Shown one piece after another: positions 3,861 through 60,393 of a stretch of 64,000 nt of DNA (positions are counted from its first letter, which is position 1; every line of letters begins with the position of its first letter). The notes below the pieces were generated by a model. It made no database searches. It saw nothing but the letters and a program-made list of their open reading frames with translations, and was not told the origin of the DNA. The translations under genes and the position numbers were made by a program. Origin of the DNA: Eubacteriales bacterium (GTDB taxonomy: Bacteria > Bacillota > Clostridia > Oscillospirales > CAG-272); contig JAZREL010000076.1 of the NCBI GenBank assembly GCA_045660785.1, positions 594 through 64,593 of the forward strand, read 5' to 3'.

Positions 3861-5327
3861 TTAAAGCAAAATGCAAATCAAACCGTTTGCCCCCTCGTTT
3901 ATCACCCGTGAGAGTGTGCTTGAAAGCTTCTTTTGTGAATCGTCTGAAATATGCTCAAGCTTTGCGTGCAAGCTGTCGTTTATTAATTCGTAAAGTGATT
4001 TTCCAAGCATATTCGATTCCCAAAGATGTCCCGGATCGTTTTCGTACTCGCTTAGCATGCTTGATACAATTTCCTCACCTTGGTCACCCGTGCCTACCAT
4101 AGGGCTTATCTCCGTATTAATCTCCGCACGTATCAGATGGATTGACGGTGCGGAGGCGCGAAGCTTCACACCGTAACCGCCCGCCTGCTTAACCATTTCG
4201 GGCTCCTTAAGCGCCATATCCTCAATTTTTGGAAGCACAATGCCGTAGCCCGTTTCGTTAACCGACTTTATTGCATCACTGTATCTTTCGTATTCCTTTT
4301 TTACCTCGGCAAGCTCCTTAATATTTAGGAACAAATCCTCGTCGTTATTTATCTCAATTTCGCAAATTTCACTCATAATTTGGTAGTAAAGCTCCGGCTT
4401 CAAGGAAATTTCAACCTCAACCTCGCCACTTCCAAGGTCGCTTTTAACACTCGGCTCACTAAGTACGTTTTCATTTTCGGAAAGCGAAAGACCAATGCTT
4501 CTTGCATCGTCAATTTTATTTGCCCCGCTTACTGCATCCCTAATGCTTGAAAGTAAGCTTGCGCGCAGCCAATGACTGTTTTCAAGTGAAGAAACGTAGC
4601 TTGGCAGCATAAATTTAATTTCATTAATATTAAACTGTCCTAATATCAAGCGGAAAATGCCCTCGAAATCCTCGTTTGATAGCTCCATCGCGTTTATCAA
4701 GGCAACGGGTGAGCCATATTTTTCCTCAAGGGAAACTGCAAGCTCGCGCGCCTCGTCGCTTTCGGGATTTTTTGAGTTTAAAACAATTACAAACGGCTTT
4801 TTAATTGACTTCAGCTCGTTTATCACTCGCTCCTCGGCAACCTCGTATGCGCTTCGCTCAATTTCACCAATTGTAGCGTCGGTTGTTAAGACAATTCCAA
4901 CCGTTGAATGGTCGCAAATTACCTTTTTTGTGCCAAGCTCCGCCGCGCGCTCAAACTCCATCGGCTTTTTGTCCCAAGGTGTTTGCACCATTCTTGGGCC
5001 GTTTTCGTCCTCACCGCCAAGGGCACCGTCAATCATATAGCCAACGCAGTCAATGAGCCGCACGCTCATTTCGGTATTTTCAATTGAAATTTTTACCGCC
5101 TCGTCGGGAATAAACTTCGGCTCAGTCGTCATTATTGTCTTGCCCGAGCCGCTTTGTGGGCTCTCATCACGTGCGCGCTCCCTGTCGTATTCCGCCTCAA
5201 TGTTGGGAATAACCATTAAGTCCATCAGCTTTTTAACAAAGGTTGATTTTCCGCTTCTCACCGGGCCAACCACACCTATGTAAATTTCATTGTTTGTTCG
5301 ACGCGCTATATCCTCGTATATATTCAT
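3861..5327 (-). CDS. spoIVA: Stage IV sporulation protein A (spore coat morphogenetic ATPase)
   Basis: 488 aa. The N-terminus MNIYEDIARRTNNEIYIGVVGPVRSGKSTFVKK carries the Walker A motif and is characteristic of SpoIVA. Confidence 0.95.
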   Translation of the reverse strand: MNIYEDIARRTNNEIYIGVVGPVRSGKSTFVKKLMDLMVIPNIEAEYDRERARDESPQSGSGKTIMTTEPKFIPDEAVKISIENTEMSVRLIDCVGYMIDGALGGEDENGPRMVQTPWDKKPMEFERAAELGTKKVICDHSTVGIVLTTDATIGEIERSAYEVAEERVINELKSIKKPFVIVLNSKNPESDEARELAVSLEEKYGSPVALINAMELSNEDFEGIFRLILGQFNINEIKFMLPSYVSSLENSHWLRASLLSSIRDAVSGANKIDDARSIGLSLSENENVLSEPSVKSDLGSGEVEVEISLKPELYYQIMSEICEIEINNDEDLFLNIKELAEVKKEYERYSDAIKSVNETGYGIVLPKIEDMALKEPEMVKQAGGYGVKLRASAPSIHLIRAEINTEISPMVGTGDQGEEIVSSMLSEYENDPGHLWESNMLGKSLYELINDSLHAKLEHISDDSQKKLSSTLSRVINEGANGLICILL

Positions 5328-6489: not shown

Positions 6490-7827
6490 ATGGACGCAGA
6501 CCCTAGTAATACTAATATTATTCCACTCTTTATGGCAAGCTTTGGCGCAAGGGAAATCGGCTTTATTGCCGCAATGGTGATTTTGCTTATTTTCTCCGCA
6601 TTTTTCTCATCAACCGAAACAGCATTTACTTCATTTAATAAAATAAGAATGAAGAATCTTGCACAAAACGGAAGCAAGCGTGCTAACCTCGTTACAAAAA
6701 TTGAAAGCAAATACGACAGATTTTTGACGAGCGTGCTTGTTGGAAATAATATAGTAAATATCACTCTTTCATCAATAGCAACACTTTTCTTTATAGGACT
6801 CTTTACTGACGTGGTTGAAGACCCAAGCAGCTTAGGTTCAACGGTTGCAACAGTTGTTATTACAGTTGCAGTATTAATTTTCGGTGAAATTACTCCGAAG
6901 GTTATTGCAAGACAAAACGCCGATAAAATGGCAATGCTTTTAGCGCCGTTTATCAATGTTGTAATCATAATTTTAATGCCACTTAGCGTAATTTTCGGCG
7001 CTTGGAGCAAGCTTCTTTCTAAAATCTTCCGCTCAAAGGAGCAGACAGCTTATACTGAAGAGGAGCTTATTACCATAGTTGACGAGGCAGAGGAGGACGG
7101 CACTCTTGAATCTGAGGAGGGTGACCTTATCCGTTCAGCCATTGAATTCAACGACGTTTGCGCAGGCGATATCCTCACACCGCGTGTCGATATTTGCGCA
7201 ATTTCCAAGGATGAATCAGTTCCAAACATCGCAAAAATATTTATTGAAAATGCATATTCCCGTCTGCCTGTTTACGACGAGGATCTTGACGATATTATCG
7301 GTATTTTGCACGAAAAGGATTTCTTTATCGCATACCATAATAACAATAAAACAATCACAAAGCACTTAAAAAAACCCGTGCACGTGTCTGAACACATCAA
7401 AATTGCAGACCTGCTTCAGGTTCTTAAATCCAAAAAATGCCATATGGCTGTCGTTGTTGACGAGTTCGGCGGCACTATGGGTATTGTCACAATGGAGGAT
7501 ATTATCGAGGAGCTTATCGGTGACGTTTTTGACGAGCACGATGAAATCTCCGAGGATTATAAGGAGCTGCCCGACGGAAGCTTTATCGTACAATGCTCAA
7601 CTGAGCTTGATAATTTCTTTGAGAAGTTTGGCATTGAGATAAACAGTGACGAGGATATGCCTCAAACACTAAACGGCTTCATTATGAAGGAGCTTGAAAC
7701 CTTCCCACACGTTGGCGACGTAATTTTCTATCAGGGCTTGCGCCTTGAAATCAAGAAAATCGGTCCAAAGCGTATTGAGAAAGCACACGTATCTAAAATA
7801 GAAGAAGAGGAAAAAGGTGCAGAATAA
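6490..7827 (+). CDS. CNNM/HlyC-CorC family transporter-associated protein (DUF21 + CBS pair + CorC_HlyC)
   Basis: 445 aa. It has an N-terminal 4-TM DUF21 domain (FFSSTETAF), a CBS pair region and a C-terminal transporter-associated domain. Confidence 0.9.
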   Translation: MDADPSNTNIIPLFMASFGAREIGFIAAMVILLIFSAFFSSTETAFTSFNKIRMKNLAQNGSKRANLVTKIESKYDRFLTSVLVGNNIVNITLSSIATLFFIGLFTDVVEDPSSLGSTVATVVITVAVLIFGEITPKVIARQNADKMAMLLAPFINVVIIILMPLSVIFGAWSKLLSKIFRSKEQTAYTEEELITIVDEAEEDGTLESEEGDLIRSAIEFNDVCAGDILTPRVDICAISKDESVPNIAKIFIENAYSRLPVYDEDLDDIIGILHEKDFFIAYHNNNKTITKHLKKPVHVSEHIKIADLLQVLKSKKCHMAVVVDEFGGTMGIVTMEDIIEELIGDVFDEHDEISEDYKELPDGSFIVQCSTELDNFFEKFGIEINSDEDMPQTLNGFIMKELETFPHVGDVIFYQGLRLEIKKIGPKRIEKAHVSKIEEEEKGAE

Positions 7828-17560: not shown

Positions 17561-18970
17561 ATGCTTAAAATGACCTTGGATTTTGAAGAAAATATAAGAA
17601 TAATAGACAACCGTCTTCGCCCGAAGGAGAGCTTTGATATAATCAAGCGCGAAATGGAGATAAACGGCGAAAAGGTAGTTATGTACTACGTTGACGGCTT
17701 CGTGACAAGCGCGCTTATGCAAAAGCTTATTATGCACCTTACAACCGTGAAGGATTTTGGAAACGGTGAAAAGGGCGCGTGCGAAAAATTTGCAAAAACC
17801 GTGCCAAGCGTCGAGGTTGATACCGCATACGACGTTGAAGCTATTGTAACGGCAGTGCTATCGGGCTGCTCGGCAATTTTGGCAGGCGGCTTCGGTGACG
17901 GCGCAATTATAGTTGACGCGCGCTCATACCCCGCAAGAAGCACTGACGAGCCCGAAAACGACAGAGTAATGCGCGGCGCACGTGATGGCTTTGTCGAAAC
18001 GCTTATTTTTAATACCGCAATGATAAGGCGCAGAATCCGCGCGCCCGAGCTGACCGTAAAATATATGTGTGTGGGTGAGCTTTCAAAACCCGACCTTGCC
18101 GTTGTTTATCTTGACAAACAAGCCGACCCTGTCTTCGTAAATAGCATAATTAAGAAAATAGAGAATATAAAAACAGACGCCTTGCCTATGGGACACCAAA
18201 GTCTTGTCGAGTGCTTAATAAAAAAGCGCTCCCTAAACCCATTTCCAAGGGTCAGATGCACAGAAAGACCCGATTGTGCCTGCGCCTCTATATTAGAGGG
18301 CAGCGTTATAATTCTTTGCGACACCTCTCCTGAGGCGATAATTTTGCCAACCTCAATTTTTGACTTTTTGCAGGACACCGACGATTATTATTACACACCC
18401 GTAACGGGCACTTATTTGCGCCTTGTCCGTCAGCTTGTTTTTTGGAGCGCGGTGGTTCTGACACCAATATGGTATTACCTTGCAACCAACCCGAGAATAG
18501 TGCCCGAGTGGCTCTATTTCGTCGTGCCCGAGGAAACGGGTGCCGTGCCTATTTTAATTCAGCTTTTGCTTGTTGAATTTGTCGTTGACGGCTTGAAGCT
18601 TGCTTCCTTAAACACCCCAAGCGTAATGTCAAATTCCTTTGGCGTTATCGGCGGACTTTTGCTTGGTGACTTTGCCGTCGAGGTCGGTTGGCTCAGCCCC
18701 GACGTCATTTTCTATATGGCAATTGTGTCAATGGCAAGCTTCACACAGTCAAACTACGAGCTTGGCTACGCCTTAAAATTCGTAAGAATAATAACGCTTA
18801 TCTTGGTTGCCTTCCTTGGCGTGTGGGGACTTCTCCTTGGCGCACTTGTCGGCATTTTCTTAATTGTCACAACCAAAACGCTCAACCATAAGCGCTCGTA
18901 CCTTTACCCCTTGTTTCCCTTCAACCCATGGGCGCTTTCCCGCCTCGTCTTTCGCCGCCACAAGCAGTGA
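17561..18970 (+). CDS. Spore germination protein, GerA/SpoVAF family (A subunit), orphan
   Basis: 469 aa with GerA-family architecture: a soluble N-terminal domain plus a C-terminal 4-5 TM region. No GerB or GerC partners are adjacent. Confidence 0.85.
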   Translation: MLKMTLDFEENIRIIDNRLRPKESFDIIKREMEINGEKVVMYYVDGFVTSALMQKLIMHLTTVKDFGNGEKGACEKFAKTVPSVEVDTAYDVEAIVTAVLSGCSAILAGGFGDGAIIVDARSYPARSTDEPENDRVMRGARDGFVETLIFNTAMIRRRIRAPELTVKYMCVGELSKPDLAVVYLDKQADPVFVNSIIKKIENIKTDALPMGHQSLVECLIKKRSLNPFPRVRCTERPDCACASILEGSVIILCDTSPEAIILPTSIFDFLQDTDDYYYTPVTGTYLRLVRQLVFWSAVVLTPIWYYLATNPRIVPEWLYFVVPEETGAVPILIQLLLVEFVVDGLKLASLNTPSVMSNSFGVIGGLLLGDFAVEVGWLSPDVIFYMAIVSMASFTQSNYELGYALKFVRIITLILVAFLGVWGLLLGALVGIFLIVTTKTLNHKRSYLYPLFPFNPWALSRLVFRRHKQ

Positions 18971-19037
18971 ACCCCCCAAGCTCAATGCTTCGCTTCGGGG
19001 AACCCCTTGACGTGAACCCCCAAAGCTCAATGCTTCG
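18967..19037 (+). repeat. Two copies of a 26-nt direct repeat, 45 nt apart
   Basis: GTGAACCCCCCAAGCTCAATGCTTCG at 18967-18992 and GTGAACCCCCAAAGCTCAATGCTTCG at 19012-19037, with 25 of 26 positions identical. Copy 1 overlaps the stop codon. Confidence 0.8.
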
Positions 19038-19057
19038 GAAAATCTCGAATAAAAAGA

Positions 19058-21424: not shown

Positions 21425-21653
21425 GAAATTTGTGCAAAATGCACAATACAAGCGGTGCTTGTAAATGAATTGCGCAAACGCATGAATTGAAGCAGAGCTT
21501 CATGAATTGTCACAAAGCGACATGAATTGCGCCTTTGGTGCATAAATTGAGGCAATACCGCATTGAAGCATCATATGGCGTAGCCAATTCATAATGTGTT
21601 AACGTCAATTTATTAAAATACAGTTTTCAATTTATGTGATTTATCACAATTCA
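21425..21653. repeat. Micro-hairpin array, family 1, locus A (about 11 units; orientation flips at ~21570)
   Basis: CATGAATTG or CATAAATTG recurs at 21481, 21501, 21521 and 21541, an exact 20-nt period. CAATTCAT or CAATTTAT (the reverse complement) recurs at 21585, 21606, 21628 and 21647. The spacers are short palindromes closed by TG...CA. Confidence 0.85.
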
Positions 21654-26668: not shown

Positions 26669-27547
26669 ATGTATTTAGCTAATGATTGGAAGGATTACGA
26701 GCTTCTTGACACCTCAGACGGTGAGCGTCTTGAGCGTTGGGGAAAATATATTCTTATTCGTCCCGACCCACAGGTAATTTGGAAGGGAAAAAGGGAGCAT
26801 AAGCTTTGGAGCCGTGCTGACGGAATTTACCGCCGTTCAAAGAGTGGCGGTGGCGCGTGGATTAAAAACGACGTGCCCGAAAAATGGACAATCACCTACA
26901 AGGATATGGTCTTTAACCTAAAGCCGATGGGCTTTAAGCACACAGGTCTTTTCCCTGAGCAGGCGGCAAACTGGGATTGGTTTAGCGAGCTTATTAAGGA
27001 AAGACGTGCCCAAGGTAAAGAGGTTAAGGTTCTAAACCTTTTTGCATACACGGGTGGCGCGACGGTTGCCGCAGCTAAAGCAGGCGCTTCGGTTGTGCAC
27101 GTTGACGCTTCAAAGGGTATGGTTCAATGCGCGAAGGAGAATATGGCATCAAGCGGACTTGAAAACGCACCTGTGCGCTACATAGTTGACGATTGCCGCA
27201 AGTTTGTTGAGCGCGAAATCCGCCGTGGAAACAAATACGACGGAATTATTATGGACCCGCCGTCCTACGGCAGGGGCCCGGGTGGCGAGGTTTGGAAGCT
27301 TGAGGATGCAGTTTGCGACTTTGTAAATCTTTGCGAAAAGCTCATCTCAGATGACCCACTTTTTATGCTTATAAATTCATATACAACAGGTCTTAGCGCG
27401 CTTACAATGGGCTACGTATTAAACGTAGAGGTTGTTAAAAAGCACGGCGGCAGGGCAGAAACTGCCGAGGTTGCCTTGCCTGTTACCGAAACCAAGGGCT
27501 TTTTGCCCTGCGGCGCGAGTGCGCGTTGGGTTGCGGACAAGAAATAA
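26669..27547 (+). CDS. Class I SAM-dependent methyltransferase (RlmI C-terminal-domain-like)
   Basis: 292 aa. LNLFAYTGGATVAAA SAM-binding motif and a DPPSYGRG motif. I set the start at ATG 26669 behind a GAGGA RBS; the tracked 26591 start overlaps ruvC. Confidence 0.85.
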   Translation: MYLANDWKDYELLDTSDGERLERWGKYILIRPDPQVIWKGKREHKLWSRADGIYRRSKSGGGAWIKNDVPEKWTITYKDMVFNLKPMGFKHTGLFPEQAANWDWFSELIKERRAQGKEVKVLNLFAYTGGATVAAAKAGASVVHVDASKGMVQCAKENMASSGLENAPVRYIVDDCRKFVEREIRRGNKYDGIIMDPPSYGRGPGGEVWKLEDAVCDFVNLCEKLISDDPLFMLINSYTTGLSALTMGYVLNVEVVKKHGGRAETAEVALPVTETKGFLPCGASARWVADKK

Positions 27548-27689
27548 GCACCTTGCGGTGCGTGAATTGATGCGACGCATCATAAATTGCAACTCTGTTG
27601 CATGAATTGTTTCTGTGAAACATGAATTGTGCTCCGCACATAAATTGCAACCTTGTTGCATGAATTGTCCTTTGGACATTTTATAATTG
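27548..27689 (+). repeat. Micro-hairpin array, family 1, locus B (7 units, all the same orientation)
   Basis: (C/G)(A/G)T(G/A)AATTG recurs at 27561, 27581, 27601, 27621, 27639 and 27659. Every spacer is a 3-4-bp palindrome with a 3-nt loop, closed by TG...CA. Confidence 0.9.
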
Positions 27690-27700
27690 TAGGAGAAAAA

Positions 27701-35025: not shown

Positions 35026-35120
35026 CACGTCAACACGTGAATGAATTGCAACCATAAGGTTTCATGAAGCAGCACTATGTAATGAAATTACAATTCATGG
35101 TTTGCAAGCATCAATTCATT
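35026..35120. repeat. Micro-hairpin array, family 1, locus C (shorter, partly degenerate, orientation flips)
   Basis: AATGAATTG at 35040, degenerate CATGAAGC at 35063 and AATGAAATT at 35081, then CAATTCATG at 35091 and CAATTCATT at 35112. The cacgt-caac-acgtg and TGcaacc-ataa-ggtttCA hairpins are visible. Confidence 0.7.
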
Positions 35121-58846: not shown

Positions 58847-58933
58847 GCCGGTGTGATGGAATTGGCAGACGTGCCGGACTCAAAATCCGGTGGTAGAGAT
58901 ATCGTATCGGTTCGACCCCGATCACCGGCACCA
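58847..58933 (+). tRNA. tRNA-Leu (anticodon CAA), encoded CCA
   Basis: Acceptor stem GCCGGTG/CACCGGC, anticodon loop CTCAAAA, a long variable arm, the GGTTCGA T-loop, and a 3' ACCA. Confidence 0.92.
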
Positions 58934-58967
58934 AAAAATCCGTATCCTTGTGGTACGGATTTTTTTA
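58934..58967 (+). terminator. Intrinsic terminator after tRNA-Leu
   Basis: atccgta/tacggat hairpin plus a T7 run. Confidence 0.8.
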
Positions 58968-58970
58968 TGC

Positions 58971-59082
58971 AATTCGCAAAACGCGAATTGATGATATACA
59001 CCTTTGGTGATGATATGCAAGACTACGCCTTGATGATATACACACGTTCGTGTGGCGATATACAATGCACGCATTGTATAAC
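58971..59082 (+). repeat. Micro-hairpin array, family 2 (5 units; linker (A/G)(T/C)GATAT(A/G); stems closed by CA...TG)
   Basis: GATAT(A/G)C recurs at 58993, 59012, 59035 and 59057. Between the copies lie cacc-ttt-ggtg, caag-actacgc-cttg, cacac-gttc-gtgtg and caatg-cacg-cattg. A 7-bp aattcgc/gcgaatt hairpin leads the array. Confidence 0.85.
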
Positions 59083-59086
59083 ACTC

Positions 59087-59115
59087 GTAGGGGATGACGC
59101 CCTGACGCGGACCCC
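59087..59115 (+). repeat. GTAG-headed REP-like element (start of a ~120-nt structured stretch)
   Basis: GTAGGGGATGACGCCCTGACGCGGACCCC is near-identical in its first ~18 nt to the minus-strand element at 47800-47825. Confidence 0.6.
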
Positions 59116-59225
59116 AAACCTCATATTACGCGAACCCGAAACCTCATTCTTCGGTTTGCGCGCCCCTATACGATTTGAGGCCCCCTATGGCATCCCGCAA
59201 AATAAAAGGTACGCTCAGGCAAATA

Positions 59226-59254
59226 CAAAAAAGAGACCTCGCGGTCTCTTTTAA
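59226..59254. terminator. Bidirectional terminator (serves the LRR lipoprotein gene)
   Basis: agagacc/ggtctct stem flanked by A- and T-runs. Confidence 0.8.
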
Positions 59255-59256
59255 TT

Positions 59257-60276
59257 TTATTCGTAAAAATCTGGAATTTCAACCGCGGAATATCTTGACC
59301 AACCAAGCGCAGGGCGGAAGCCCCAAATTGAATCTCTTGCTTGTCTGTTTGACTTTTCGCTCTTGTCAAAAAGCGTGAGGTTGCTTTCCCATTCAAGGAT
59401 TATCGGCAGGTCGTTTTTCATTGACGAGTCGAGCAAGCGATAGTTAATCTTGTCGCCGTTTTGAACCTCGGAATACAAGCAAACGCGAATTCCCCAACAA
59501 AGGTCAAATGCAGCCGCCTCAACCACCTTGATGCTTCTTGGAATTGCAATAGTGTAGTAGTAGCTTTCGTTTTTATATTGGCTGTTTCCAAACGCCACGC
59601 CAAAATCAGTAAACGCGTTTGTCTTAATTCCAACAACGCTCTTGCCTTGGTATTCGCGCGGCATGTAAACAATCTTCGTTGCATCAACGGGTCTTACAAA
59701 GTCAACACAGTAAAGCTCACCGTTTTCCTCTACGTAAACAAAGCCGTCAGCGTCCGTAATTGTGGTAGGCGCAGGTGGCTCCTCGTTTCCTTCGTCACCG
59801 TCGCCCTCGCCGCCGTTGTCACCGCTATTATCGCCACTGTTGTCACCGCCCTCGTTGCCTGAGCCACCTTGGTTGCCGCTTCCGCCTTGGTCGTCGTCCT
59901 CATTGTCTGAGCCACCTTGGTTCTCGTTTCCACCTTGGTCGTCGTCCTCATTGCCTGAGCCGCCTTGGTTCTCGTTTCCGCCTTGGTCGTCGTCCTCATT
60001 GCCTGAGCCACCTTGGTTCTCGTTTCCGCCTTGGTCGCTGTCCTCATTACCCGAGCCACCCTCGGTGTCAGTGTCTGTTTCGGTGTCGGTAACATCGCCT
60101 GCACCCGTGTCGGTGTCCTTATTTGTGTCGTCCGTGTCGATGTTTGTGTCTGTTTCGTCCGTTTGTGTGCCTTCGCCCGTGTCAATGTAAATGCCACCGC
60201 CCTCGCAAGCGGAGAAGCAAAGCGCCAAAAGAACGGTCAGTGCCAAAAGAATACACAAAAATATATTTCTTTTCAT
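59257..60276 (-). CDS. Lipoprotein with an acidic repeat linker and a C-terminal BspA-type leucine-rich-repeat-like domain
   Basis: Lipobox FSACEGG, a T/D-rich stretch, (GGSGNEDDDQGGNENQ)n repeats, then an IPRSIKVVEAAAF-type LRR segment. The start ATG 60276 lies behind a GAGGA RBS. Confidence 0.75.
   Translation of the reverse strand: MKRNIFLCILLALTVLLALCFSACEGGGIYIDTGEGTQTDETDTNIDTDDTNKDTDTGAGDVTDTETDTDTEGGSGNEDSDQGGNENQGGSGNEDDDQGGNENQGGSGNEDDDQGGNENQGGSDNEDDDQGGSGNQGGSGNEGGDNSGDNSGDNGGEGDGDEGNEEPPAPTTITDADGFVYVEENGELYCVDFVRPVDATKIVYMPREYQGKSVVGIKTNAFTDFGVAFGNSQYKNESYYYTIAIPRSIKVVEAAAFDLCWGIRVCLYSEVQNGDKINYRLLDSSMKNDLPIILEWESNLTLFDKSEKSNRQARDSIWGFRPALGWSRYSAVEIPDFYE
59885..60076. repeat. 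In-frame 48-bp tandem repeat, about 4 copies
   Basis: ccttggtcg(t/c)(c/t)gtcctcatt starts at 59885, 59933, 59981 and 60029, an exact 48-nt period. It encodes the 16-aa G/N/E/D/Q repeat. Confidence 0.9.
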
Positions 60277-60364
60277 AAATTCCTCTAAAAAAATGATATA
60301 TTTCGATTTTATCATAAATAGTTCATTTTTGCAATACAATAAGCAAAATTGCGAAAAATTTCTA

Positions 60365-60393
60365 TTTACATTTTATATTAAGTATGATATACT
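60365..60393 (+). promoter_or_regulatory. Sigma-A promoter (TTTACA-17-TATACT with extended -10 TG) for pcrA
   Basis: Read directly from the sequence. Confidence 0.55.

Follow-up and report, generated by a model that had tools for sequence, protein, structure and literature searches.

A mini-hairpin array beside a tRNA-Leu gene is a truncated member of a multi-copy extragenic element of uncultured gut Clostridia

The roles proposed for repetitive extragenic palindromic (REP) sequences and bacterial interspersed mosaic elements (BIMEs) are RNA 3′-end protection, gyrase or IHF binding, and insulation. The Gut-1 RNA motif (Rfam RF01706; Weinberg et al. 2010), to which no function was given, was detected only in human gut sequence (PMC2864571). 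DNA mini-hairpins of extraordinary stability follow a rule, a GNA or GNNA loop closed by a C-G pair, and occur at primase and N4 RNA polymerase recognition sites, and the N4 promoters, with a 5-bp stem and a 3-nt loop, are read on one strand (PMC13037366, PMC3201870). Here, we analyse an array of mini-hairpins that follows a tRNA-Leu(CAA) gene in a 64,000-nt stretch of an Eubacteriales genome (assembly GCA_045660785.1, contig JAZREL010000076.1, positions 594–64,593, forward strand; hereafter the window, or 64-kb window, with positions counted from its first letter). The array alternates a constant 10-nt word with short palindromes, and we conclude with high confidence that it is a truncated, forward-word-only member of a multi-copy extragenic element of uncultured gut Clostridia (Acutalibacteraceae, Oscillospiraceae and relatives). 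The repeat family to which it belongs is a widespread, undescribed intergenic element that follows tRNA gene terminators in these bacteria.

The array lies at window positions 58970–59080 and consists of a first hairpin, hp0, and then four words, each with a C...G-closed mini-palindrome. Together with the tRNA gene and its terminator, its parts are as follows.

58847–58933, plus strand: tRNA-Leu(CAA) gene, whose 3′ flank carries the array (ARAGORN; Rfam tRNA, 49.5 bits)
58934–58969, no strand assigned: intrinsic terminator, bidirectional in appearance, with an A-run, the hairpin ATCCGTA...TACGGAT, a T-run and then ATG (sequence, inverted-repeat listing)
58970–58990, no strand assigned: hp0, the first hairpin, 8 bp, CAATTCGC-AAAAC-GCGAATTG (inverted repeat, folding)
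58990–59063, plus strand: forward-word (B-type) half array, comprising the four words and three of the four mini-hairpins
58990–58999: word 1, GATGATATAC
58999–59009: hairpin 1, CACC-TTT-GGTG
59009–59018: word 2, GATGATATGC
59018–59032: hairpin 2, CAAGACTACGCCTTG
59032–59041: word 3, GATGATATAC
59041–59054: hairpin 3, CACAC-GTTC-GTGTG
59054–59063: word 4, degenerate, GGCGATATAC
59059–59080, no strand assigned: hairpin 4, with 10-bp arms, TATACAATGC-AC-GCATTGTATA, which overlaps word 4 and closes the array (inverted repeat, folding)

A first-pass annotation, made from the letters of the window, had described a hairpin array at 58971–59082 with a period of 19–23 nt. That description holds: the sequence is as stated there, and successive words are 19, 23 and 22 nt apart. 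Several of its details change. The opening hairpin is present, with a stem of 8 bp rather than the 7 bp given. Units 1, 3 and 4 are perfectly complementary, as all stems had been said to be, but the stem of unit 2 is better taken to span 6 bp, with a TAC triloop and a single A.C mismatch; this unit differs by one base from CAAGAC-TTC-GTCTTG, which is common in the family, and on the minus strand its mismatch turns into a G.U or G.T pair. The linker word is indeed constant, with a conserved length of 10 nt. The CA...TG closure of the stems is a tendency only: the second pair is usually A-T, and across the family the closing pair joins the final C of a word to the G that starts the following word. 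The TATAA that had been set apart as a trailing word belongs to the 3′ arm of the last hairpin.

GATATRCA occurs nine times in the window against 2.75 expected, and four of the nine fall within 72 nt at the array. When the interiors of the four spacers were shuffled, the observed stem lengths were matched in none of 200,000 trials (per-unit probabilities 0.007, 0.018, 0.001 and 0.002). RNA folding and DNA folding alike return five local hairpins, with minus-strand z-scores of −2.6 for RNA and −3.7 for DNA. Searches of Rfam at the gathering score and at permissive E-values place no family over the array except Gut-1, below threshold: 58965–59044 reaches 14.8 bits (E 6.9), short of the gathering score of 50, and is not a member by the Rfam criterion.

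The same design recurs widely. A scan for two successive words (GATGATATRC-N7-15-GATGATATRC, one genome per species) matched at least 120 loci, nearly all in metagenome-assembled genomes of Clostridia, Acutalibacteraceae, Oscillospiraceae and Eubacteriales from animal guts (individual loci carry L numbers below). These loci in other genomes hold 294 distinct self-complementary hairpin spacers, mostly with triloops, bearing out the initial view of a recurrent architecture rather than a local duplication. A covariance model (R1), built from the forward-word (B) halves of 45 other loci with the window excluded, matches the window at 58976–59065 with 53.5 bits (E 4.3e-10), and the next best match in the window reaches 17 bits. 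Conservation in relatives, likewise anticipated, is found at the orthologous locus. Relatives of the Mini-III RNase of the window come from metagenome-assembled genomes and metagenomes only, and the closest one with sequence (L003/L078; Mini-III identity 87%) has a tRNA-Leu(CAA) gene with the same hp0 behind it and then GATGATATAC words, whose hairpins are in part different. In L078, hp0 stands at the same place as CAATTCGC-AAAT-GCGAATTG, and the L003/L078 contig ends inside the array; in L001, the canonical hp0 begins at the same place and the contig stops there. More generally, the contigs of the relatives L001, L003 and L004 end inside or right beside the array or the tRNA. Between taxa of family rank, and also at an orthologous locus, hairpins turn over but words and layout persist, which points to purifying selection and not to recent copying.

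In its usual form the element is a dyad-symmetric composite of about 150–190 nt. Its unit is the 10-nt word GATGATATAC plus a C...G-closed perfect mini-hairpin (stem 5–7 bp, loop 3–4 nt), and each half has three words, reversed in the A half and forward in the B half; 53 of 208 word clusters are ordered exactly −−−+++. The full order runs from a tRNA, tmRNA or 5S-tRNA operon (sometimes a protein gene) through a bidirectional terminator, AT, hp0, the A half (GTATATCATC words and hairpins), the centre and the B half (GATGATATAC words and hairpins) to ...TTGATT. The centre, 9–10 nt before the first B word, is the exact reverse complement of the 5′ arm and loop of hp0 in 45 of 51 composites, and the two covary, with a mean of 0.18 mismatches compared with 2.3 when centres are permuted between loci.

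The placement of the element is equally regular. The A-run, hairpin, T-run and AT seen in the window precede the element in other genomes too, with equivalent terminators in 55 composite loci. The 3′ end of a tRNA or tmRNA gene abuts the A side in about 45 of 60 loci, always with the same polarity, and 51 of the 71 operon-terminal tRNA or tmRNA genes in the fetched loci bear the element, in a sample that is biased because the loci were chosen for having it. Placement close to tRNAs and terminators, which the first-pass annotation had proposed to check in other regions, is general across loci. On the far side, the 3′ arm of the last hairpin and ATT together form TTGATT in 21 of 68 composites and serve as the −35 of the next promoter; in these 21 the spacer is 16–17 nt (17 nt in 19), the −10 hexamer departs from TATAAT by at most one mismatch, TG is present in 15, and a short conserved leader follows ahead of unrelated genes. 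This conserved promoter and leader, TGnTATAATCAnnnCGACAAAnAAGAATTTG...GGAGG, stands before unrelated genes in L084 (262–300, 770–800 and 1440–1490), L027, L068 and L074, and L084 also has an inverted copy of the TGnTATAATCAnnnCGACAAAnAAGAATTTG promoter and leader at the 3′ end of one gene. In L114, two composites 2.3 kb apart (4573–4700 and 6908–7036) flank a single gene; their A halves are nearly identical, and they have exchanged hp0-loop and centre partners (GCA with TGTC, GACA with TGC), the outcome expected of Campbell-type recombination within the A half.

Complementarity of the stems extends to the other copies, as foreseen: 371 of 456 units (81%) have at least four perfect end-anchored pairs, compared with 14 of 456 shuffles (3%). 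Of the 12 aligned pairs that RNAalifold gives for the 45 B halves, 10 have compensatory changes on both sides, and G.U pairs are rare (about 1% of cells). The hairpins also distinguish the two DNA strands. C-GNA-G or C-GNNA-G loops are found in 81 unique units on the GTATATCATC strand, which we call the marked strand, compared with 4 on the other, and single mismatches on the GTATATCATC strand are of the G.T type 25 times and of the A.C type 5 times. Read on the tRNA-sense strand, the two halves of a composite are consequently mirror images (A loops CGCAG, CGTCAG and CGAAG; B loops CTTCG, CTGCG and CTACG). The adjoining true terminators provide an internal control, with 4-nt UUCG or GNRA loops in 39 of 55, whereas array hairpins mostly have 3-nt loops. 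The bias of both loop type and mismatch type to the GTATATCATC strand points to a single-stranded, strand-specific unit. This pattern of conservation, in which the linker is constant and the stems are free but self-complementary, is unusual for bacterial repeats, as is the strand-locked loop rule. We also considered long-range pairing of A words with B words, which would give a ladder of four-way junctions; the variable word positions of symmetric partners show no covariation, indicating that the words of the two halves do not pair.

Compared with the composites, the window array is incomplete: no GTATATCATC words lie near it, and it is not a full dyad-symmetric composite. Its tRNA-Leu gene, terminator and hp0 follow directly in series, as they do in L078, L120 and the composite loci, and its hp0 is the counterpart of the CCATTGC-GAAA-GCAATGG or CCAAGCC-GNNA-GGCTTGG hairpin that opens composites elsewhere. 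A lone hp0 with a forward-word half is also present in L078, L120 and L073. Such a layout is what a deletion between two copies of the 3′ arm of hp0 would leave. On the minus strand, the C-GTA-G loop of unit 2 fits the GNA rule, and the other loops are AAA, GAAC and CGTG.

Arrays built on other words connect this family to Gut-1. A bona fide Gut-1 match in L114 (1822–1891, 63.7 bits) comes right after a tRNA and its terminator and is half of a dyad-symmetric pair (other strand, 34.3 bits). The window itself holds a second family (family 1, with CATGAATTG words and TG...CA-closed triloop hairpins) at 21464–21560, 27548–27690 (six or seven perfect hairpins) and 35040–35120, between protein genes and with no adjacent tRNA. 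The array beside the tRNA-Leu gene shares the design of family 1, as first noted from the sequence, and family 1 at 27539–27613 scores 28.4 bits against Rfam Gut-1, under the gathering score of 50. Further words in the same design occur after tRNA terminators, namely GATTACATAC, AGTGATATT, ATGAAGC and (A/G)TGAAAT. Inverted word arrays that have no hairpins (TTCATTA/TAATGAA and TTCACT/AGTGAA) are also seen after tRNA terminators. The last three of the further words and those of the inverted arrays have the core TGA(A/T)(A/G)T in common, and their loci include L041 (after tRNA-Cys), L124 (tRNA-Thr), L065 (tRNA-Arg) and L099, L117 and L123.

Three features lie downstream of the array in the window.

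59087–59215, no strand assigned: GC-rich, GTAGGGG-headed repeat block, a separate family often found beside arrays
59229–59252, minus strand: terminator of the convergent lipoprotein-like gene (terminator scan)
59257–60339, minus strand: convergent lipoprotein-like gene (open reading frame list)

The GTAG-headed block had been reported directly after the array and is present there as a distinct repeat family, not as part of the array. It contains direct-repeat pairs at 59105–59124/59128–59147 and 59152–59169/59171–59188, and GTAGGGG.../...CCCCTAC blocks also stand beside arrays in L005 and L086. Another GC-rich repeat, GAACCCCCAAAGCTCAATGCTTCGG, occurs as two copies after a gene end at 18969–19040 of the window, and a close match to it, in reverse complement, lies inside the hp0 loop of the L092 composite (642–796), which suggests that GAACCCCCAAAGCTCAATGCTTCGG is a mobile REP-like element landing in hairpin loops. 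Within the lipoprotein-like gene, a 48-nt tandem repeat (59850–60101, 4.4 copies, 91% matches) codes for a low-complexity linker rich in G, N, E, D and Q.

As to function, we favour, at a probability of roughly 40%, a unit that would be read by a protein on a single strand. The functional object would be the single-stranded C-GNA-G or C-GNNA-G mini-hairpin plus (G)TATATCAT(C), which a putative protein would recognise either in RNA or in DNA whose duplex has come open through supercoiling, transcription or replication; in this way the arrays would work in a REP/BIME-like manner, as punctuation or an insulator between a strongly transcribed stable-RNA unit and the neighbouring transcription unit. 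Several considerations weigh against this. The sequences themselves establish the architecture, its recurrence, the complementarity of the stems with compensatory changes, the asymmetry of the strands and the placement in genomes; recognition as a single strand, insulation and the nature of any binding protein are what we infer purely from these patterns. Stems of 5–7 bp are short for spontaneous extrusion from duplex DNA, template-switch (quasipalindrome) correction can keep palindromes perfect without functional selection, and GNRA-type tetraloops are stable in RNA too, which leaves room for RNA. Nor is the relation of the marked strand to flanking transcription fixed: the marked strands converge on the centre in this family and diverge in Gut-1-like composites, and lone arrays after terminators are found in either orientation. 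Because this layout varies, a simple read-through-RNA model fails, and any model must accept both layouts; a general model in which both halves act on read-through RNA coming in from outside was also rejected, as Gut-1-like composites reverse the order of the halves and lone arrays run both ways. Finally, the window copy is degenerate and may be decaying, since its A half is lost and, on the marked strand, a GNA-type loop is present in unit 2 alone.

The alternatives differ mainly in what they make of the stems and of the strand bias. A structured RNA element, as proposed for Gut-1, is somewhat unlikely. It would be a small RNA, a 3′ trailer or read-through RNA, in which tandem GNRA- or GNA-capped hairpins reinforce termination or stop exonucleases, or else offer the AU-rich linker UAUAUCAU to an RNase or an RNA-binding protein. 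The resemblance to Gut-1, which its authors classed as RNA on covariation and which matches in L114 after a tRNA terminator, favours such an RNA, as do the compensatory changes in the stems, the 25:5 bias to G.U-type mismatches on one strand and the frequent GNRA tetraloops GCAA, GUAA and GAAA. In the window, minus-strand read-through from the convergent lipoprotein-like gene would cross the array on the strand that gives unit 2 a GUA triloop and a 6-bp stem containing a G.U pair. Yet a strong terminator separates the tRNA from the array; the B half usually precedes the next −35, where its marked strand would be transcribed only as antisense RNA; orientation to flanking genes varies among families and lone arrays; G.U pairs, at about 1% of cells, are far below what is usual in structured RNAs; and triloops dominate, unlike in the adjoining terminators. 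The array is not a cluster of intrinsic terminators either: a terminator scan calls none in 58970–59082, and the units are followed by GATGATAT or GTATATCA and not by a U-tract. The same scarcity of G.T pairs fits DNA-level correction, and with it a selfish or neutral REP-like repeat or miniature inverted-repeat transposable element of no benefit to the host, spread by a putative single-stranded-DNA enzyme or by tandem duplication, gene conversion and template-switch repair, whose stems quasipalindrome correction would keep perfect. Multi-unit blocks are tandemly duplicated in the arrays of L070, L075, L120 and L067; two copies on one contig share identical or nearly identical B halves and differ in their A halves (L084 and L089); and the swapped hp0 and centre partners of the two L114 composites, the terminator stems that recur among loci, the frequent contig breaks inside arrays and the GC-rich REP-like element inserted in the hp0 loop of L092 all agree with such an origin. 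We nonetheless regard it as unlikely. It sits poorly with the persistence of words and layout despite hairpin turnover, seen between taxa of family rank and at an orthologous locus, and with a strict polarity and position relative to tRNA 3′ ends, and neutral upkeep of palindromes does not predict the 81:4 loop asymmetry. Transposases are not enriched nearby: among the 25 most frequent families listed for 111 downstream open reading frames, which are ordinary, mostly housekeeping genes, there are no integrases, transposases or HUH enzymes.

That last result also bears on a recombination role, in which folded single-strand composites would serve, like integron attC sites, for single-gene cassette swaps at tRNA-proximal hotspots. 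The order tRNA, element, single gene, element, gene in L084, L089, L099, L012 and L114 invites this comparison, as do the conserved junction from terminator to ribosome-binding site ahead of unrelated genes, the swapped hp0 and centre pairs around one gene in L114, which resemble a Campbell-type insertion, the hp0–centre complementarity kept in 45 of 51 composites, and a PF05635 (Avd-like) gene found directly after 14 of 55 composites beside different tRNAs. Against it, L027 and L068 are identical in the terminator and in both halves but differ upstream, so that the breakpoint falls at the end of the tRNA rather than within the element, and in L033 and L017 insertions that target the tRNA leave the array on the distal, resident side; we consider cassette exchange very unlikely. 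The least probable alternative, to which we give almost no credence, is an array of protein-binding sites in duplex DNA, whether promoter-like or sigma decoys, as the first-pass annotation had suggested, or an upstream activating region for the next promoter. The 10-bp words do recur every 19–26 bp or so in two inverted triplets, in 21 of 68 loci a consensus promoter has the B half at roughly −35 to −110, and the word holds TG-n-TATAC, with ATGATATACT forming a plausible extended −10 at 60384–60393. Duplex binding leaves unexplained, however, why 294 spacers are self-complementary and why loop and mismatch types are biased to one strand; the loop and mismatch asymmetry argues for single-strand hairpins and not for mimicry of a duplex promoter. 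The spacing is variable and not in helical phase, the words of sister families (CATGAATTG, GTGAAAT and GATTACATAC) are unlike a −10, and no promoter or gene follows the window array. The word gives TATACA, without the −7 T, and a promoter scan (−35 and −10 hexamers 16–18 nt apart, with A2 and T6 in the −10) finds in the array only two weak, overlapping 9/12 matches, both on the TACAAT of the last unit and neither with a preceding TG, so that a row of sigma-70 promoters or decoys is unsupported.

Two further classes were considered and rejected. Arrays of clustered regularly interspaced short palindromic repeats (CRISPR) have repeats of about 23–50 nt, unique spacers of about 26–72 nt and cas genes or a leader; here the period is 19–26 nt, the repeats are 10 nt long, the spacers are self-complementary, and no Rfam CRISPR repeat matches at the array. 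An arm-site region of an integrated element is contradicted by two loci in which the 3′ end of the tRNA is duplicated around the remnant of an integrative element. In L033 (4452–4760), tRNA 3′ end and terminator are duplicated around an insert of about 140 nt, and in L017 (4851–5460), the tRNA 3′ end alone is duplicated around an insert of about 470 nt; in both, the array stays with the resident, distal copy. Comparison by blastn with phage and plasmid collections gave no match, which, together with the lack of integrases and transposases among those 25 families, also tells against an arm site and against a classical mobile element. A pattern scan of viral contigs returned mostly unrelated coding tandem repeats along with three loci (L161, L176 and L178) that are composite-like as judged from match positions alone.

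One neighbouring gene recurs with the element. A gene of the PF05635 family (23S rRNA intervening-sequence, four-helix-bundle, Avd-like; 114 amino acids) begins about 60 nt after the B end in those 14 of 55 composites (for example, L087 6785–7129, L082 3353–3697, L084 1093–1437 and L186 1501–1845), and the composites that bear it adjoin different tRNAs and tmRNA. It is also found behind a GATTACATAC-word composite, and one further species has a tRNA, a composite and then the PF05635 gene. Identity among these proteins is 87–96% across the best 120 of 3,211 matches (clusters at 90% identity), many of which come from very short contigs; these, and the contig ends at arrays and tRNAs, fit repeats that break assemblies. 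A search of the 64-kb window found no PF05635 gene, and the literature on PF05635 or 'intervening sequence protein' offered nothing useful beyond a review of diversity-generating retroelements. In a bolder and distinctly improbable version of single-strand reading, the four word families GATGATATAC, GATTACATAC, GTGAAAT and CATGAATTG would be cis sites of an undescribed single-strand transaction, in which a dedicated protein reads the C-GNA-G hairpin and ATATCAT. That protein would act on opposite strands of a dyad-symmetric site beside every stable-RNA operon, and the transaction might consist in insulating transcription units through supercoil-driven hairpin extrusion, in priming or restart, or in swapping single genes beside tRNAs as integrons do; the sole genomically linked candidate for the reader would be the PF05635, Avd-like four-helix-bundle protein. 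If this is true, the Gut-1 motif and the 23S rRNA intervening-sequence proteins would for the first time have a functional setting.

In a large group of abundant uncultured gut bacteria, many tRNA, tmRNA and rRNA–tRNA operons appear to be marked on their 3′ flank by these elements. The elements connect the Gut-1 motif, an orphan since 2010, with a DNA-level element, since Gut-1 in L114, and likewise in the Gut-1-like composite of L065, is half of a dyad-symmetric structure behind a tRNA terminator, and they join to it at least three further word families of the same design together with a widespread, functionless family of 23S rRNA intervening-sequence proteins. The combination of constant linkers, free stems and strand-locked loops predicts a protein that would read hairpin and word on a single strand. 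In practical terms, the repeats break metagenome assemblies at tRNA loci and could serve as taxon markers.

Set beside known systems, the element shares with REP sequences and BIMEs its nature as an extragenic, multi-copy mosaic of palindromes and short conserved linkers, often in inverted pairs and at the 3′ ends of transcription units. REP sequences conserve the palindrome, whereas here the linker word is conserved and the palindromes vary, differing from unit to unit (294 variants); the array units are 13–17 nt long compared with about 35 nt in REP, have no GTAG/CTAC head and are tightly linked to tRNA and tmRNA terminators. In the material covered, the 64-kb window and 8-kb loci, a REP-associated tyrosine (Y1) transposase gene is not among the 25 most frequent families of neighbouring open reading frames, no dedicated search having been made. 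Integron attC sites are likewise conserved in structure over sequence, act as folded single strands with strand selectivity and lie between single genes, but each is one long imperfect hairpin with R and L boxes, in contrast to arrays of words and mini-hairpins tied to tRNA terminators with no integrase among those families, and the element does not match an attC site. The DNA mini-hairpins GCGNAGC and GCGNNAGC have the same C-G-closed GNA or GNNA loops on short stems, a rule that the family follows 81:4; those are single phage or plasmid origin or promoter sites, whereas the present hairpins form arrays by chromosomal tRNA genes, show no link to a primase or phage polymerase and, in the window copy, include one such loop (unit 2, minus strand). 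Closest is Gut-1, which also consists of tandem small hairpins split by a short conserved linker in gut-derived sequence, with related linker cores (TGAAAT, TGATAT and TGAATT). The Gut-1 linker is GUGAAAU with three tandem hairpins, whereas that of the window is (G)ATGATATA(C), within the word GATGATATAC, and so does not match it; and the tRNA-proximal half is the forward-word half in Gut-1-like composites and the reversed-word half in the GATGATATAC family. Gut-1 is thus the only described relative of this repeat family, sharing its architecture but not its sequence family.

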